In this document: positions 1 through 6,245 of the stretch, one piece after another
Layout of the letters: every line of letters starts with the position of its first letter
Numbering within the stretch: the first letter of the stretch is position 1
Origin: Escherichia phage UP19
Direction: 5' to 3' (one strand)
DNA length: 64,000 nt
Sequence record: OX638288
Notes under the pieces: model-generated
Seen by the model: only the letters and a program-made list of their open reading frames with translations
Database searches by the model: none
What the model was told of the DNA's origin: nothing
Made by a program: the position numbers and the translations under genes

Positions 1-26
1 CCGTGAATACGCTAAAGAGGTTCAAA

Positions 27-380
27 ATGGAACGGCCTAGTCTTTCATCGCATGTTTATCAATTGGCTGAATATGATATTGCTATTTCCTTATTCACGGG
101 AATTGTCACAGGTATGCTCGGCGGTCTGGTTGGTCTGGTAATGACCACAGTTATGGCTGCAATCGAAGGAGTCATGCCTATTGAGATGGGTTTCTATATG
201 ATAATCGCTCCGGCTGTCGTGGCTTATTTTATCCCTCTTGTGTATGATATTTGCCATACAAATGCTTTGAATGCTCCCATCCGTAAGAGATATGCTTTAG
301 AGATGGCTAATTATAATGAGTATGTAAAACAAACCAAACGTAATGACCTTGAAACCTTTATTAAGGAATGTAAATCATGA
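27..380 (+). CDS. hypothetical membrane protein (117 aa); start uncertain, may be truncated at window edge
   Basis: ORF track 3..380 (GTG alt start); ATG at 27 after AGAGG; hydrophobic segments; C-terminus resembles that of ORF 4458..5045. Confidence 0.45.
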   Translation: MERPSLSSHVYQLAEYDIAISLFTGIVTGMLGGLVGLVMTTVMAAIEGVMPIEMGFYMIIAPAVVAYFIPLVYDICHTNALNAPIRKRYALEMANYNEYVKQTKRNDLETFIKECKS

Positions 381-667
381 ATAAAATTGAAATTGAAATC
401 CCTGAATACAACGACGAGAAATCTGCAGAAAAAGCTATCTATGCTCTTCTGAATAAAGTAGATACCATCGAACATGAATGTGAAGCTATTGCTGATAAGT
501 ACGGTATTCAATTCGGAACAGGTGATTATGGCTCAGGACGTACATACTACCCTGTTGGTTATGAATGCTCCCAGTGGTTTAAAGATGAAATTGAAAACAA
601 TGGTGGTGAAGTTGAAAATGGCGTCGTTACAGTTGGTGCCTGGATCTCCTCTTCAGCATTATGCTAA
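377..667 (+). CDS. small protein, member 1 of tandem W-x-SSS-x-x-C family (96 aa)
   Basis: ORF track; ATGA overlap with upstream stop; C-terminus AWISSSALC. Confidence 0.6.
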   Translation: MNKIEIEIPEYNDEKSAEKAIYALLNKVDTIEHECEAIADKYGIQFGTGDYGSGRTYYPVGYECSQWFKDEIENNGGEVENGVVTVGAWISSSALC

Positions 668-676
668 GGAAACGCT

Positions 677-958
677 ATGATGAATGATAATCATAACCAC
701 CCAGAGCTTCTGGCCGCAGTAAAAGAAATTCATGAAGCTATTCGTCGTGCCGAGGAAATTGCAGACAAATATGAGACTCATTTTAATATATACCCTGCTC
801 GCGGTATGGGCGGTGACTATTATTCTCCTGGCGCCCTGAAAGCTGACCTAGCCCACTGGGAAGAAGATGGTCATCCTGAATGGGCTATTGTTAATACTCA
901 TGACTATACAACTGACCTGGAAAATGGTGGTTGGGTGTCCTCTTCTTCTGAATGTTAA
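677..958 (+). CDS. small protein, member 2 of tandem W-x-SSS-x-x-C family (93 aa)
   Basis: ORF track; TAAGG stop/SD overlap 9 nt upstream; C-terminus GWVSSSSEC. Confidence 0.6.
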   Translation: MMNDNHNHPELLAAVKEIHEAIRRAEEIADKYETHFNIYPARGMGGDYYSPGALKADLAHWEEDGHPEWAIVNTHDYTTDLENGGWVSSSSEC

Positions 959-967
959 GGAAATATT

Positions 968-1165
968 ATGTCTCGTGAATTAGATTGTGCAATCCGTACT
1001 GCCGCCGCGGCTATTGAAAACGTTATCCAGATTTGCAAAGAAGAACGTGAAGAAGCTGATATCTATATCGATGGTGTTCGTGACCTGGAACGACATATCA
1101 CGCTTTACAATGGTTGTATTACAATTAGTGGTACCTCTTGGGTGTCCTCCTCTTACGAATGCTAA
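968..1165 (+). CDS. small protein, member 3 of tandem W-x-SSS-x-x-C family (65 aa)
   Basis: ORF track; TAAGG SD; C-terminus SWVSSSYEC. Confidence 0.6.
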   Translation: MSRELDCAIRTAAAAIENVIQICKEEREEADIYIDGVRDLERHITLYNGCITISGTSWVSSSYEC

Positions 1166-1174
1166 GGTAATAAA

Positions 1175-1387
1175 ATGACTATTGATGAAATTGAAAAACA
1201 AATCCGTGAATTAGTACGTAAAGGCCAGTCCGTGGCTGATGAAACAGGTGAAGAGTTCCATGTTTCCGGTCGTGGACAATACATTTCTCCAAAGAATCCG
1301 GAATATGATGATTACGAATGGGCCCGTGATGATTACGGTATCCCAGATGGTGAAGGTTTCTGGTTTACATCCTCTATGTCTTGCTAA
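1175..1387 (+). CDS. small protein, member 4 of tandem family (70 aa)
   Basis: ORF track; TAAGG SD; C-terminus FWFTSSMSC. Confidence 0.6.
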   Translation: MTIDEIEKQIRELVRKGQSVADETGEEFHVSGRGQYISPKNPEYDDYEWARDDYGIPDGEGFWFTSSMSC

Positions 1388-1396
1388 GGTGATAAA

Positions 1397-1621
1397 ATGT
1401 CTGATATTAATGAATTAGAAAAAGCTGCTCTTGAACTGGCTGCATTGTATAAGAAAGTAAAAGATATGGCTTCTGCTCAAAGTTTTGGTGTTGAGTTAGA
1501 CGATTACGATGGTGAAGTTCGTCTTGAAGATTGGTTGAATAGCTCTTGTTACGGCGAAGAAGCTGGTCGCACCTTCGTTGCTCGTTCCGATGGTAAAATC
1601 TGGTACCCGAGCTCATGCTAA
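1397..1621 (+). CDS. small protein, member 5 of tandem family (74 aa)
   Basis: ORF track; TAAGG SD; C-terminus IWYPSSC. Confidence 0.6.
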   Translation: MSDINELEKAALELAALYKKVKDMASAQSFGVELDDYDGEVRLEDWLNSSCYGEEAGRTFVARSDGKIWYPSSC

Positions 1622-1842
1622 AATTAAAGAAAAGATACATTCGTAAAATAAACGGTCTTCGCGATTATGCCAAAGGTTGGCCATTAAGTATTATTATGGC
1701 TGATAGACACCCACGTTATAATACTGAGATGACCTATTATAAAAAGTATGATTCATATTGTCGGTCTAAAGCAGGTCGTTTAGATGGTTCTTATGAAGAA
1801 TATTTTGGCAAAAAACCTACTCGTATTTCGTTAGGAAAATAA
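1615..1842 (+). CDS. hypothetical protein (75 aa), start uncertain
   Basis: ORF track; no clear SD. Confidence 0.4.
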   Translation: MLKLKKRYIRKINGLRDYAKGWPLSIIMADRHPRYNTEMTYYKKYDSYCRSKAGRLDGSYEEYFGKKPTRISLGK

Positions 1843-1872
1843 TTTAGCCACATGGACGTGGTAGGAGGACTT

Positions 1873-2202
1873 ATGCACAAAGATTCAGTATTCAAATATC
1901 TTTTGAAAACAGATAAAGAATTCTATATGAATGGGCAAGCTTTCTTGTTCGTTCGTGGTAAACGTGAGATGTTTTATAAATGCGACCTCTCAATGCACCA
2001 TCACATGTATCATACTCATGGTGAGCCTATACTAGGGTTCTCTGGTGACGAGACTAGACGCATAGCTATGTATTATGACCATTTTAAGCTCAATGACTGT
2101 GGTGACAACGCTTTGGTCTGGAATCCATCTTGGCGTCGTTGGGATACGGTAGACAACGATAAATTATTTTTAGAATATTGCAGAAGTGATGTACAACTCT
2201 AA
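1873..2202 (+). CDS. hypothetical protein (109 aa)
   Basis: ORF track 1852..2202 trimmed to ATG after AGGAGGA. Confidence 0.5.
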   Translation: MHKDSVFKYLLKTDKEFYMNGQAFLFVRGKREMFYKCDLSMHHHMYHTHGEPILGFSGDETRRIAMYYDHFKLNDCGDNALVWNPSWRRWDTVDNDKLFLEYCRSDVQL

Positions 2203-2245
2203 AAACTTGTGTTACTATTACCTTACACAAACATGAGGAGAACAT

Positions 2246-2485
2246 ATGTGGTATTACTCTCCATTGTCTGATAAGTCTGATGAGCCGGTACGAATTACTC
2301 GTGCCAAGTTTAAAAAGATTTATGGTTTTGCCTATAAGAAGTCTGATTATGGTGTTCGTTTTGAAGATGCTCACTGTATCAATGACCCTTATACAGAAGA
2401 AATCTCTAATGAGATAATTCCTATCATTAAGAATAATTCTGATGATATGTGGGAATTGCATAACGATTACGTTGCTGAAATTTAA
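2246..2485 (+). CDS. hypothetical protein (79 aa)
   Basis: ORF track; GAGGAGAA SD upstream. Confidence 0.5.
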   Translation: MWYYSPLSDKSDEPVRITRAKFKKIYGFAYKKSDYGVRFEDAHCINDPYTEEISNEIIPIIKNNSDDMWELHNDYVAEI

Positions 2486-2506
2486 GTTTACTCTGAGGAA
2501 AATATT

Positions 2507-3466
2507 ATGATGCTAGTTATTGGTTCTCGTGCACTGCACCATGCAGGTCTGATTGAAAGTAAGTATATAGAAAATTCTGATTGGGATTTCATTGCCGACC
2601 AAGGCTCGTGGAATCAATTTAAAGCCCGGATGTTCGGTGCTCACGTTCCTGTGGATAATCCAGATGTCCAGGCTTTTAAATGCATGTACAATGGTAAAGA
2701 AACCTATTTTGAAGCTTATATCGTTCGTGCTCTGACTAACGTACGAGAAATTACCGGTGAGCTTCAAGACGAAGATTTCACTTCAAGCTATCGTCTCCTG
2801 AAATATGCTGAAACCCATATTCAAAAGGACCGTCTTACTGGTTTCTATTGGGCAACCCCTGATATCTGTCTGGCTATCAAAATGAGCCATCGTTATTTGA
2901 AGAACAACCCGTTCTTTTTGAAGACGATGTCCCACATCAAATATCTTCGTAATAAAGGTGTAACCTTGAATGAAGAGCTCCAAGAAATCATGTTGCAACG
3001 TCAGAAAGAAACGTTGAGCTATTCTCATCCTAAATTGGATGTAAACAAATCATCATTCTTTAATGATACCATTTATACGCTAGACCATGACTCTATCCAC
3101 GAAGCTGTGGCATTGGCTGGACGCCCTGCATATACCTTTTATATGAAGGAAGGTTCTGAAGTCATGACCTCACGTGAGAAGTTTGAAGCTTTGCCTGAAG
3201 CTATTAAACTGGCTGGCGTATATGAAGAAACTTGTGTGTTGGCCCTAGAACGTTCACAGGTTCCTAACAACTTTAATATTTCACCGTCATTAAGTTTCTA
3301 TATGGCTCTTGAGAAAGTGTGTACCTCAATCACTTCAGGCTGGTTCCGTGAGTATGCCTGGGAAAACTACCAAGCTGTAGTGAATATGTATAAGACCCTA
3401 GGTGAAAATGACTACATCAAGCGGTTCCAAGATAACCATCATTTAATTCGTCCTTTCGAAAAATAA
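2507..3466 (+). CDS. hypothetical protein (319 aa) with possible Pol-beta-type nucleotidyltransferase motif
   Basis: ORF track; GAGGAAA SD; N-terminal VIGSRAL...NSDWDF resembles the GS...DxD nucleotidyltransferase signature (weak). Confidence 0.6.
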   Translation: MMLVIGSRALHHAGLIESKYIENSDWDFIADQGSWNQFKARMFGAHVPVDNPDVQAFKCMYNGKETYFEAYIVRALTNVREITGELQDEDFTSSYRLLKYAETHIQKDRLTGFYWATPDICLAIKMSHRYLKNNPFFLKTMSHIKYLRNKGVTLNEELQEIMLQRQKETLSYSHPKLDVNKSSFFNDTIYTLDHDSIHEAVALAGRPAYTFYMKEGSEVMTSREKFEALPEAIKLAGVYEETCVLALERSQVPNNFNISPSLSFYMALEKVCTSITSGWFREYAWENYQAVVNMYKTLGENDYIKRFQDNHHLIRPFEK

Positions 3467-3478
3467 TTGCATAAAACA

Positions 3479-3507
3479 GTATACAAGGTCTATAGGTGTG
3501 ATACTAT
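3479..3507 (+). promoter_or_regulatory. T4-type early promoter-like cassette (GTATAC -35, 17-nt spacer, TACTAT -10)
   Basis: matches the recurring GTTTAC/TAcTAT cassette; followed by 'tatagacctatcaa' leader. Confidence 0.5.
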
Positions 3508-3544
3508 AGACCTATCAAAACAACAGAGTGAAATGGAGAATAAA

Positions 3545-3757
3545 ATGAAACTTTCTAACCAAGCAATCAACATGTTAAACGAAGTTCGTGCAGCTGGTGC
3601 TAAATGTCTGATGGTTAACACTCGTGACGGTGACCTTCGTCAAGCATTTGGTGAATTGAAATCTGCTGACCTGGTTAAATGTTCAGTTGGTATCGGTAAC
3701 GCACTTCGTGTATCCTTATCCCCTAAAGGTAAAATGTACTTTTTCAACAAAAAGTAA
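3545..3757 (+). CDS. hypothetical protein (70 aa)
   Basis: ORF track 3467..3757 (TTG alt start) trimmed to ATG after GGAGA; in-frame ATG at 3533 also possible. Confidence 0.5.
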   Translation: MKLSNQAINMLNEVRAAGAKCLMVNTRDGDLRQAFGELKSADLVKCSVGIGNALRVSLSPKGKMYFFNKK

Positions 3758-3771
3758 TTGAGGAAAATATT

Positions 3772-4458
3772 ATGAACAGCCCGAAAACTTTTAATTCCAA
3801 AGCTCGTGCAGTGGGTAGTTTTGCCGGTAAAATTTCTAACGATAAAATCAAAAACGAAACTATGTTCTTCAACAGCTCATTGGCTTTCGCTTTTGATAAT
3901 GGTGGCCCTATTACTCGCAGCTTCATCATGAACCTGCCGGATGATTGGAACACTGACCAGGTTGTATTTGATTCTCGAGTTCATATGCTTATGCCTGGTT
4001 GGTATCCTGCTATCCCAGGTTATCACCATGATGATGTACCACGCCCGGATATTCCGGTTGGTCAACACTTTATTACCGCAGGGCAACCTGATTATGATAA
4101 TCCTCGATACCATTCTGAACATATTCTTGGTCTTGTTAACGCTGATGTGTGTCCTACTTATTTTGCAACCGGAACTGCACAATTTAGCCAGATTCCTGAA
4201 GGCGAACTTATCTATCGCCAGTGGCATAAAGAAGTTCTGGAAAAAATTGAGTCCAATGAATTAACCAAGTGGGATGCTCCTGACCGCACATTGCTCCAGT
4301 TTGATTGGCAGACGTGGCATACTGGTTCTCGTGCAGTAAGTAATGGCTGGCGCTGGTTTGGTCGTGTGTCCCGTAATACCGACCGTGTTAAAAAGATTAC
4401 AAATGAAATCCGCGTTAATGCTCAAGTATATCTGGAATTCCCTATGGAGGGCTGGTAA
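3772..4458 (+). CDS. hypothetical protein (228 aa)
   Basis: ORF track; GAGGAAA SD. Confidence 0.6.
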   Translation: MNSPKTFNSKARAVGSFAGKISNDKIKNETMFFNSSLAFAFDNGGPITRSFIMNLPDDWNTDQVVFDSRVHMLMPGWYPAIPGYHHDDVPRPDIPVGQHFITAGQPDYDNPRYHSEHILGLVNADVCPTYFATGTAQFSQIPEGELIYRQWHKEVLEKIESNELTKWDAPDRTLLQFDWQTWHTGSRAVSNGWRWFGRVSRNTDRVKKITNEIRVNAQVYLEFPMEGW

Positions 4459-5045
4459 TGGCCCTTTATGAACCTGGTTGCATGGGTGTTGATGTAAACT
4501 TCATCCGTCGGTCAGAAAATGCCGGAATCATTATCCCAAGTGGTGAACATATGATTATTAAAAAGTCCTGGCGAAATATTGATGATGGGGATGAAGGAAT
4601 TTCAGCCAGTACAATAGATTGGTCAGGTTGTACTGCTGAAATGAAACAACTTTTAATTGAGGAATATAAAATGGGCTATATCGTAAATGGTTGGCAACCA
4701 GAACCCCATAAAGAACAGACACCAGACCCATTGATTTGTTATAGCAAAAAATACGGCTTTCGTACATGGAGTGATGAATACGACAAATTAGTGAGTTCTA
4801 GGTTCTATGTTTGGATGGGGATATTATTTTTCCCACTCCTAGGGTTTTTCCTGACAACGGATAATGACTTACCTATTAGTGTGTTTGCTTCAGCGATGTC
4901 GGCGGCAATCTTAGGGCTTATTGCATCATTTTTATGGACTGCAGTTATTGAAGTACCTTTTCGTATTTCTAAAGTTAAAAAGGTGTATGACGATATCACT
5001 AAGAAAAATGCATTAAACTCTTTTATTGAGGAATGCCGTAAATGA
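4458..5045 (+). CDS. hypothetical membrane protein (195 aa)
   Basis: ORF track; TAATG overlap; C-terminal hydrophobic segments. Confidence 0.6.
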   Translation: MALYEPGCMGVDVNFIRRSENAGIIIPSGEHMIIKKSWRNIDDGDEGISASTIDWSGCTAEMKQLLIEEYKMGYIVNGWQPEPHKEQTPDPLICYSKKYGFRTWSDEYDKLVSSRFYVWMGILFFPLLGFFLTTDNDLPISVFASAMSAAILGLIASFLWTAVIEVPFRISKVKKVYDDITKKNALNSFIEECRK

Positions 5046-5278
5046 GTATTGCGATTTATATTAAATCCGAGTCATGCGATTCTTATCTGTATTCCTATGA
5101 CACCGGAACATCAGAAGAGAAAATCAAAGAAGATTTAGAAACCGACTTGGATATGTTCCGTCCTATTTCTGACTATATGGTCCAAGTGTCTGATAGTGAA
5201 AGCCCGTCATTAGAAAATAGACTTGAATTTTTAATGAGCGATATTTTTAACCAATCATGGAAACGTGATGATGAGTAA
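5042..5278 (+). CDS. hypothetical acidic protein (78 aa)
   Basis: ORF track; overlapping start with upstream stop. Confidence 0.5.
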   Translation: MSIAIYIKSESCDSYLYSYDTGTSEEKIKEDLETDLDMFRPISDYMVQVSDSESPSLENRLEFLMSDIFNQSWKRDDE

Positions 5279-5720
5279 GAAAGTTAAAGAACTATCAGCC
5301 GGTATTTTGTTCATGACTGTCGATAAAGAATTGGTTATGGGTCGTGTAACAGGTTCTCGTAATCCAGAGAATATGCGTCATAAATGGGACATTCCTAAAG
5401 GCCATGTCGAACCAGGTGAAGAGCCTATTCAAGCTGCTATGCGTGAAACCGAAGAAGAGATTGGATTCACTGCATATGACCCTGCGTTCCTGAAAGACCT
5501 AGGTGAGTTCAAATATTCTAGCAATAAGAATCTACATCTGTTCTTATATACTGTGCCTGTCGAACACGAGCAGTTCAAGGATTGCAAATGTACCGCTTAT
5601 CATACGTTCCCTGACGGCCGTACGATTCCTGAATTCGATGCCTTTGCCTTGATTAAACGTCCGCAATGGGAATATGTCATGGGCCCGTCGATGTTTAAGG
5701 TTTTAGATTCGCTCTTTTGA
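5265..5720 (+). CDS. nudE: Nudix hydrolase (NudE/e.1-like)
   Basis: Nudix box GHVEPGEEPIQAAMRETEEEIGF; located immediately upstream of e as in T4. Confidence 0.75.
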   Translation: MMMSKKVKELSAGILFMTVDKELVMGRVTGSRNPENMRHKWDIPKGHVEPGEEPIQAAMRETEEEIGFTAYDPAFLKDLGEFKYSSNKNLHLFLYTVPVEHEQFKDCKCTAYHTFPDGRTIPEFDAFALIKRPQWEYVMGPSMFKVLDSLF

Positions 5721-5748
5721 TATAAATACCTCCTATAATCAGGAGGTA
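5721..5748 (+). promoter_or_regulatory. late promoter TATAAATA (5721-5728) plus hairpin 5727-5748 sequestering the e RBS
   Basis: exact TATAAATA; arms TACCTCCT and AGGAGGTA are reverse complements; same arrangement described for T4 gene e. Confidence 0.6.
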
Positions 5749-5750
5749 TT

Positions 5751-6245
5751 ATGGATATTTTTGATATGTTACGTCAAGACGAAGGTCTTGATTTAAATCT
5801 TTATAAAGACACTGAAGGTTATTGGACTATTGGTATTGGCCAGTTAGTTACCAAGAACCCATCTAAAGATGTTGCTCGTGCCGAACTTGACAAACTTATG
5901 GGTCGGGTTTGCAATGGACGTATTACTATGGCTGAAGCTGAACAACTCTTTAACCGTTCAGTGGAAAATGCTCGTAGAGCTATAATGCGTAATCCTAAAT
6001 TGAAACCGGTTTATGATGTGCTGGACGAAGTTCGTCGTTGCGCGCTGATTAATATGGTCTTTCAAATGGGTGAAGCTGGTGTCGCTGGATTTACCAACTC
6101 TCTGCGTATGCTCCAGCAGAAACGTTGGGATGATGCCGCAGTTAACCTGGTGCAGTCCCGTTGGTATAAGCAGACTCCGAATCGCGCTAAGCGAGTTATC
6201 TCTACATTTAAAACAGGAACTTGGAAAGCATATGAAAACCTATAA
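5751..6245 (+). CDS. e: lysozyme (endolysin), T4 e-type, 164 aa
   Basis: protein [13 protein letters not shown]...[10 protein letters not shown] closely matches T4 lysozyme as recalled. Confidence 0.95.

Follow-up and report, generated by a model that had tools for sequence, protein, structure and literature searches.

Five consecutive small genes at positions 377–1621 of a 64,000-nucleotide stretch (the window) of Escherichia phage UP19 DNA (OX638288) encode proteins sharing a C-terminal tail of the W-x-S-S-S-x-x-C type, and a gene for a putative nucleotidyltransferase (NTase) is situated downstream at 2507–3466. These genes belong to a conserved phage module in which a single MenT/ANT-like NTase is accompanied by one to six small acidic proteins sharing a docking-type body and the near-invariant tail. 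The arrangement suggests an enzyme-and-partner system of virulent phages. Tentatively, and with somewhat less than even confidence, we favour the reading that the small proteins are dedicated partners of the enzyme, to which the tail may be offered as a hydroxyl acceptor, making them nucleotidylylated substrates or carriers.

The five tail-bearing paralogues

All five small open reading frames (ORFs) lie on the + strand and encode 96, 93, 65, 70 and 74 amino acids (aa). The ORF list and the raw sequence bear out these lengths, together with the 9-nucleotide (nt) spacing and the TAAGG stop/Shine–Dalgarno junctions described in a first-pass annotation of the DNA. The distance from each stop to the next start is exactly 9 nt at every one of the four junctions, which read TGC/TGT-TAAGG(A/T)(A/G)A...ATG; the TAAGGnnnn..ATG elements are located at 665–679, 956–970, 1163–1177 and 1385–1399 on the + strand of the raw sequence, a layout that appears arranged for translational coupling. 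The ATG of ORF1 overlaps the stop of an upstream membrane-protein ORF (ATGA, 377–380), and the ATG of the next ORF (1615) overlaps the ORF5 stop (ATGCTAA). Neither a promoter-like excess nor a terminator-like site was found in window positions 1–4600, which is compatible with co-transcription of the array and the downstream genes.

Paralogue 1 (377–667, + strand; 96 aa, isoelectric point (pI) 4.3) ends in AWISSSALC (nt 641–664), matches phrog_899 (E 1.5e-22) and is the orthologue of JS98 orf129 and RB69 ORF139c. Paralogue 2 (677–958, +; 93 aa; phrog_899, E 3.4e-19) has one Cys and the tail GWVSSSSEC (nt 932–955). Paralogue 3 (968–1165, +; 65 aa; phrog_4882, E 2.4e-36), ending in SWVSSSYEC (nt 1139–1162), possesses a divergent body without the YGxGG loop. 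Paralogue 4 (1175–1387, +; 70 aa; phrog_899, E 3.3e-14) again has one Cys, in the tail FWFTSSMSC (nt 1361–1384). In the case of paralogue 5 (1397–1621, +; 74 aa; phrog_899, E 1.4e-9), which terminates in IWYPSSC, the motif is present in two copies, the internal WLNSSC (nt 1532–1549) and the terminal WYPSSC (nt 1601–1618), and its orthologue in Phapecoctavirus ESCO13 shows the same double motif. The tail pattern common to all five is W-x-[S/T/P]-S-S-(x-x)-C.

ORF1, ORF2 and ORF4 are similar over their whole length, sharing an N-terminal helix (..EAExIADE..), a strand (F-x-F) and an (A)YG(M/S)GG(T/R)xYYP loop, which is degenerate in ORF5 and absent from ORF3. Against the main family profile, the divergent ORF3 and ORF5 align by hhalign through the tail only, and despite this ORF5 is a full-length phrog_899 protein. 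The N-termini had initially been described as variable; the bodies are nevertheless homologous and are confidently predicted to adopt a common domain. For every one of the five paralogue types a separate orthologue exists in other T4-like genera, at 43–70% identity (62–74% for the enzyme), so the copies are old and individually retained, and the earlier idea of a diversifying family was overstated.

With respect to JS98, paralogue 4 is the least conserved of the five (80% identity; the others 96–100%). The JS98 RefSeq record (NC_010105) has an annotation gap at this position, where an intact 69-aa ORF ending in FWFSSSMSC is present (locus L001, 7175–7384).

The small-protein family

A family profile built from 15 members was searched against 1.84 billion proteins (E ≤ 0.001, reduced to representatives at 50% identity). 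The family comprises at least 334 clusters at this level, and 150 representatives were listed, 144 of which end in the tail W-x-[SAPTC]-S-[SATN]-x-x-C, optionally followed by one residue, as in a few members that extend beyond the terminal Cys. The five tails reported in the first-pass annotation are thus not a product of chance, given these counts and the phrog_899 and phrog_4882 matches, and the Cys-tail family proposed there proves to be real, large and defined by its tail. Among the 137 listed representatives that end in Cys, Trp occupies position −7 in 136 and Ser occupies both −4 and −3 in 136; position −5 is Ser, Ala or Pro, and Gly is frequent at −8/−9. A [YF]GxG loop (consensus AYGMGGTYYP) occurs in 133 representatives; members have a median length of 86 aa and a median net charge of −8, and 89 of 149 contain no Cys other than the terminal one. 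The overall consensus can be written as helix(..EAExIADE..)-F-x-F-..AYGMGGTYYP-(acidic variable linker)-G-G-W-x-S-S-S-x-x-C. Furthermore, some members (ORF5, P0074, P0126, P0170 and P0174) contain the whole unit W-x-S-S-(x)-C internally as well, and a few have additional internal units of the form W-(D/E)-S-S-(G)-C.

Degenerate tails are observed in Acinetobacter phage Minot (L050, 3068–3259) and in RSP15 (L057, 3195–3398 and 3707–3979), where the protein either lacks the terminal Cys (..NSNWSNSEA) or runs two to three residues past it (..RWRSSTAICNGY and ..KWNASAGMCGYL). The long representatives with N-terminal extensions, inspected by eye, are helical or coiled-coil-like or apparently mis-started, and no fused domain was recognisable in them.

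In the AlphaFold2 (AF2) model of paralogue 1 (predicted local distance difference test score (pLDDT) 92.4), a long N-terminal helix packs against an antiparallel sheet of small size, a fold for which no match was found in the PDB. Similarly, the five proteins and the family profile gave nothing significant against Pfam, NCBIfam and the PDB sequences. A weak resemblance to WW domains was noticed: the profile picks up a 1171-aa eukaryotic multi-WW protein (P0169) in six stretches (E 3.9e-6) and reaches the PRPF40A WW domains in the PDB at an E of about 0.6, and the five proteins have no match to Pfam WW (PF00397) at E ≤ 1. Within ORF1, the segment GSGRTYYP...QW (window 530–580, residues ~52–68; profile positions 38–67) resembles the β2–β3 region of WW domains (GRxYYxN...W).

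The small family is restricted to phages. A YGMGGTY[YFI] scan of one genome per species across 185,579 bacterial and archaeal species found no relative of it, and 5,426 complete E. coli genomes contain no similar DNA. Neither the small family nor the enzyme was found in T4 positions 1–74 kb, in agreement with the earlier remark that the family could not be recognised from T4; T4 Tk.1 gave a weak, partial hidden Markov model (HMM) match without the tail and is not a member. A literature search on phrog_899, DUF7275/DUF7277, the RB69 ORF names and phage NTase/AMPylation found nothing relevant.

Two further identities were considered and rejected. Ubiquitin-like and sulfur-carrier proteins (ThiS, MoaD) are characterised by a β-grasp fold, a C-terminal Gly-Gly and an E1-like adenylating enzyme, a combination that the small proteins and their locus do not show. 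The capsid targeting sequence of T4 internal proteins is N-terminal, of the MKTYQEFIAE type, and is cleaved by the prohead protease; the N-termini of the five proteins (MNKIEIEI, MMNDNHNH, MSRELDCA, MTIDEIEK and MSDINELE) do not resemble it.

Linkage to the nucleotidyltransferase gene

For the neighbourhood analysis, 43 viral-contig loci were fetched through the small protein, using the YGMGGTY subset and hence biased to members having that loop, and JS98, a Mosigvirus, Aeromonas phage 44RR2, Pseudomonas phage SYP and the window were added. ORFs were called, the family HMM was searched and all neighbouring proteins were clustered. Tandem arrays of one to six paralogues are the rule (six in L029). 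A single cluster of ~300-aa proteins contributes exactly one gene to 46 of the 49 loci, on the same strand and 9–1600 bp downstream of the small genes; in the window it is the gene at 2507–3466. The three loci without this enzyme are contigs that end less than 900 bp past the small gene.

The reverse test gave a corresponding result. Nine loci fetched through the enzyme have adjacent small paralogues, and the tenth is an uninformative 2.3-kb contig. Enzymes at least 35% identical to that of the window are accompanied by two to five small paralogues in ESCO13, Acinetobacter phage Minot, Ralstonia RSP15, Otagovirus phiPsa267 and Stenotrophomonas Ps15, in the last of which they lie downstream of the enzyme. 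In bacterial genome collections the enzyme has only five matches, all on phage-like contigs of metagenome-assembled genomes; four of these (L062–L065, enzyme 35–54% identical) have one to three small paralogues upstream of the enzyme, the fifth being the 2.3-kb contig just mentioned. In distant enzymes below 33% identity (Gordonia Bachita, Streptomyces Wakanda, Vibrio nt-1 and K470, and DSS3_VP1), no small-family member was found nearby. Since the small family has not been seen without the enzyme and distant enzymes exist without the small family, the dependence runs from the small protein to the enzyme. Carriers of the module include T4-like phages, Phapecoctavirus, Otagovirus, Menderavirus and jumbo phages.

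Each of the distant DUF7275 enzymes adjoins a different small, very acidic protein with a net charge of −8 to −15 (L051 4645–4944, L052 4600–4890, L053 3705–4001, L060 4614–4922 and L054 4884–5069). Those of Streptomyces phage Wakanda and Vibrio phage nt-1 show weak mutual similarity over 87 aa. Such neighbours may constitute an analogous partner family.

RNA-repair genes are also observed around the NTase module in several unrelated phage lineages, namely RNA ligases of the Rnl1 or Rnl2 type and polynucleotide kinase (PNK)/phosphatase genes. They lie about 3–6 kb upstream of the module in L010, L012, L014, L021, L025 and L026 (the jumbo-phage group of L010 and others), and are also present in L006/7 and L023. 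In RSP15 (L057), an Rnl2 gene is immediately downstream of the module (5006–6028), and RNA-repair genes occur near the distant enzymes of DSS3_VP1 (L054) and Wakanda (L051) as well. Meanwhile, NAMPT/NAD-salvage and Sir2 genes recur in the vicinity in ESCO13, nt-1, Ps15, K470 and DSS3_VP1. A general association with tRNA genes was rejected; these lie within 10 kb in only 11 of 43 loci.

The partner enzyme and related systems

The partner enzyme (2507–3466, + strand; 319 aa; Pfam DUF7277 and DUF7275; phrog_2141) is, by its motifs and structure model, an uncharacterised Pol-β-type NTase. Its alignments display the invariant G6-S7...D25-x-D27...E69 signature of this superfamily, and a very conserved helical domain (K125, S127, H128, K139, H194, D195, H198, E240, E241, E248, R249 and K270). 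The best matches of the structure model are MenT1, MenT3, MenT4, ANT(2'') and LnuA. R129, R148, R165, H174, C272, R281 and W285 are conserved in the partner-associated clade and mostly absent in the partner-less clade. The enzyme is found in 733 phage records and forms at least 2,237 clusters at 90% identity; its homologues are all labelled 'hypothetical', except for evident mis-annotations. Two such labels, 'prohead assembly scaffold protein' (P0190, Klebsiella phage vB_KpnM-VAC36) and 'baseplate hub subunit' (H76, Yersinia phage vB_YenM_P8), look like errors in view of the fold and motifs of this NTase.

The module is similar to MenAT1 of Mycobacterium tuberculosis, in which the NTase toxin MenT1 is paired with the short protein antitoxin MenA1 (PMC10435456, PMC11375011), both in how its genes are arranged and in the fold of its enzyme. 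A Pol-β NTase fold bearing G-[ST]...D-x-D and, further downstream, a Lys motif is shared with the MenAT/AbiE group, but the module enzyme belongs to DUF7277/DUF7275 and not to DUF1814, without sequence or Pfam relation; none of 42 enzyme homologues matched DUF1814/AbiEii (PF08843), even at E ≤ 5. Compared with MenT1, the module enzyme is 100 aa longer, with a highly conserved extra helical domain. MenAT/AbiE systems reside in bacterial chromosomes and plasmids, whereas the module is found in phages only and supplies one to six paralogous partners per enzyme. MenA1 lacks the invariant C-terminal W-x-S-S-S-x-x-C, and the partners here adopt a predicted helix-plus-sheet fold without a PDB match. 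ANT(2'')/AadB and LnuA are small-molecule O-nucleotidyltransferases, that is, bacterial resistance enzymes with no protein partner and without DUF7275. RlaP (PF10127) represents the RNA-ligase-associated Pol-β NTases of phages (PMC7824862, PMC12776372). It is likewise a phage Pol-β NTase, sometimes beside RNA ligase/PNK genes, but belongs to another Pfam family, and no small tail-tagged partner has been reported for it; the module enzyme has no PF10127 match, and this identity was rejected.

Possible function of the tail and competing explanations

We infer a physical interaction between the small proteins and the enzyme, the tail as the contact point, and a covalent transfer to Ser. The acceptor reading is favoured because the tail residues are chemically reactive (two Ser and a Cys) and stand at a fixed spacing from the terminus, and because the whole tail unit repeats internally in some members; such recurrence of W-x-S-S-(x)-C would be the behaviour of a recognised or processed unit. 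A hydroxyl acceptor is suggested by the relatives of the enzyme, as MenT1, MenT3, MenT4, ANT(2'') and LnuA all transfer a nucleoside monophosphate to a hydroxyl. In the proposed mechanism, the conserved helix and the YGxGG-YYP sheet would dock onto the enzyme, and the invariant tail G-x-W-x-S-S-S-x-x-C would reach the catalytic pocket, where a tail Ser hydroxyl would take the position of the 3'-OH (MenT toxins) or of the drug hydroxyl (ANT/Lnu enzymes). The small proteins would thereby become nucleotidylylated acceptors or carriers, and the divergent middle regions would give each paralogue a separate downstream role. Because five types are individually retained here and up to six copies per enzyme occur elsewhere, several substrates or adaptors fit better than redundant inhibitors. 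The gene linkage, the dependence of the small family on the enzyme, the amino-acid-level selection on the tail and the clade-specific residues of the enzyme likewise count for this reading.

Several points weigh against this reading. The interaction and the tail modification are themselves inferred. As to the earlier suggestion of a C-terminal modification or targeting signal, a candidate for the modifying or partner enzyme does lie adjacent and had gone unnoticed. In the AF2 model, Trp lies in a strand and S-S-x-x in a short terminal helix (pLDDT about 80); with the tail ordered in this way, the motif may serve a structural purpose or belong to a ligand site, and need not be a flexible acceptor. 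MenA1–MenT1, the closest characterised analogue in gene arrangement, is an inhibitor pair and not an enzyme–substrate pair (PMC10435456). Nucleotidylylation of Ser alone leaves the role of the invariant Cys unaccounted for, as does every other model; sharing of a metal with the clade-specific C272/H174, or thioether formation, are possibilities. The enzyme is not basic overall (pI 6.1), and charge complementarity with its acidic partners would be local at most. In addition, the existence of partner-less enzyme homologues implies that the ancestral substrate was something else.

The main rival, which is possible though doubtful, is an inhibitor or regulator of the MenA1 type, in which the N-terminal helix would bind the NTase and block or time its activity, and the tail would act as a pseudo-substrate plug without covalent transfer. 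The 68-aa, mainly helical MenA1, whose gene precedes that of MenT1, blocks the active site of the toxin, for which its N-terminal helix suffices (PMC10435456). The gene order here is the same, and the unrelated acidic neighbours of the distant enzyme clades (net −8 to −15) recall the diverse, non-homologous partners typical of antitoxins. However, inhibition does not readily account for five individually conserved types to a single enzyme here, or for as many as six elsewhere, and the C-terminal 17 residues of MenA1 are disordered and dispensable, whereas the tail is the most conserved feature of the small proteins. Furthermore, the module occurs in virulent phages and not in bacterial chromosomes, and its enzyme lacks the Pfam match to DUF1814/AbiEii.

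Rather unlikely, in our estimate, is a hitherto unknown phage post-translational modification system, in which the enzyme would covalently modify the Ser-Ser-x-x-Cys tail on a set of folded small proteins. Conceivable modifications are O-nucleotidylylation, extension into an oligonucleotide linked to the protein (MenT extends tRNA ends in this manner), or activation of Ser followed by elimination and thioether closure onto the terminal Cys. Two known chemistries bear comparison. The holo-acyl carrier protein synthases CitX and MdcG, enzymes of nucleotidyltransferase type, attach a nucleotide-derived group through a phosphodiester to a Ser of a small acidic carrier; no homology was seen, and in those carriers, which are not multi-copy, the Ser is internal and a terminal Cys motif is absent. 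Loci of ribosomally synthesised and post-translationally modified peptides (RiPPs) place several tandem precursor genes beside one modifying enzyme, and lanthipeptides contain S/T...C rings and a C-terminal S-x-x-C (AviCys). The module likewise combines tandem small genes with a single enzyme and a terminal, sometimes repeated, Ser-Ser-x-x-Cys. RiPP precursors, in contrast, consist of a leader and a disordered, variable core, while the module proteins are predicted to be well folded (pLDDT 92) and the tail is their conserved part. Among the module neighbours, Pfam, NCBIfam and PHROG revealed no dehydratase, cyclase, LanD, protease or exporter.

It is unlikely that the small proteins are specificity adaptors, each with a variable middle that would bind a different host or phage target while the conserved helix, loop and tail recruit the enzyme, so that the target is nucleotidylylated and not the small protein. 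Conserved ends around a variable middle and the individual retention of the paralogues are consistent with this, and RNA ends are a candidate target, given that several unrelated lineages have an RNA ligase gene, a PNK-phosphatase gene or both a few kb away from the module. Yet the RNA-repair/tRNA neighbourhood is not general, as the tRNA count above indicates, and no RNA ligase adjoins the module in the window. Many members have a short, acidic middle region of low complexity, a poor candidate for specific recognition, and the invariant Ser-Ser and Cys are left without explanation.

An improbable alternative is that the small proteins are independent effectors, acting as ligand or metal binders or anti-defence 'sponges' with a composite site formed by the YGMGG loop, Ser-Ser and the terminal Cys; the linkage to the enzyme would then reflect a common pathway, for example binding of its nucleotide product. 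The two most conserved motifs are indeed a Gly-rich loop and a Ser/Cys tail, and in the minimal 60-aa members the predicted helix/β1/loop/β2/turn/β3 topology would place both at one end of the sheet. The ordered tail of the AF2 model also agrees with such a site. Small phage proteins that sequester nucleotides are known. On the other hand, a net charge of about −8 is unfavourable to nucleotide binding, most members have one Cys per chain, and no structural match to any known binder was found.

The conservation of the tail acts at the amino-acid level, as indicated by the near-invariance of Trp and Ser, the use of all Ser codons and the lack of RNA structure at the junctions. The two invariant Ser residues are encoded by any of the six Ser codons (AGY in 11 and 19 of 62 distinct tails), and both Cys codons are in use at the terminal Cys. 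That the junction is instead a conserved nucleic-acid element, either a repeat or an RNA structure for translational coupling, with the protein motif as its by-product, is extremely improbable: a 42-nt direct repeat does span the tail codons and TAAGG..ATG at the four junctions with 62–81% identity, but relatives at 25–35% identity keep the tail with this full range of codons, ORF5 retains it without a junction, and the RNAs of the four junctions have less stable folds than their shuffled counterparts (z +0.7 to +1.6), so that codon usage and folding together rule the element out.

Genomic setting of the module

Window bases 1–4000 are 95.8% identical to Escherichia phage JS98, and the window is that of a JS98-like Dhakavirus, a T-even coliphage. 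The array region is flanked by an e.6 homologue with orf131/orf130 and by e.2/nudE/e, a position equivalent to that of T4's hyperplastic 'e-tRNA' block.

Between the array and the enzyme are three ORFs of 75, 116 and 79 aa (1615–2485, + strand; phrog_7065, 9796 and 3723). These are lineage-specific insertions outside the conserved module; the Mosigvirus lacks the first two, and in other phages the gap from the last paralogue to the enzyme varies from 9 to about 1600 bp. The first of the three (1615–1842) encodes a strongly basic protein (pI 10), is specific to Dhakavirus and is 100% identical to its JS98 copy. Just downstream of the module in T-even relatives is the gene of a 228-aa, RB69 ORF132c-like protein (3772–4458; phrog_1843), which is 77–99% identical across T4-like genera, above the conservation of the NTase, and has no match in Pfam or NCBIfam.

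Implications

Both partners of the module are large, uncharacterised, phage-restricted families. Their linkage, the near-invariant tail and the several paralogues per enzyme turn a block of 'hypothetical proteins' into a testable hypothesis. Nucleotidylylation or some other processing of the tail, if it occurs, would add a new protein-modification chemistry to phage–host conflict, and a modification system of this kind would supply infecting T4-like, rV5-like, Otagovirus and jumbo phages with several distinct modified effectors. Should the small proteins prove to be inhibitors, the module would be the first MenAT-like regulated NTase in virulent phages. The acceptor and the inhibitor outcome alike would give DUF7275/DUF7277 a function.

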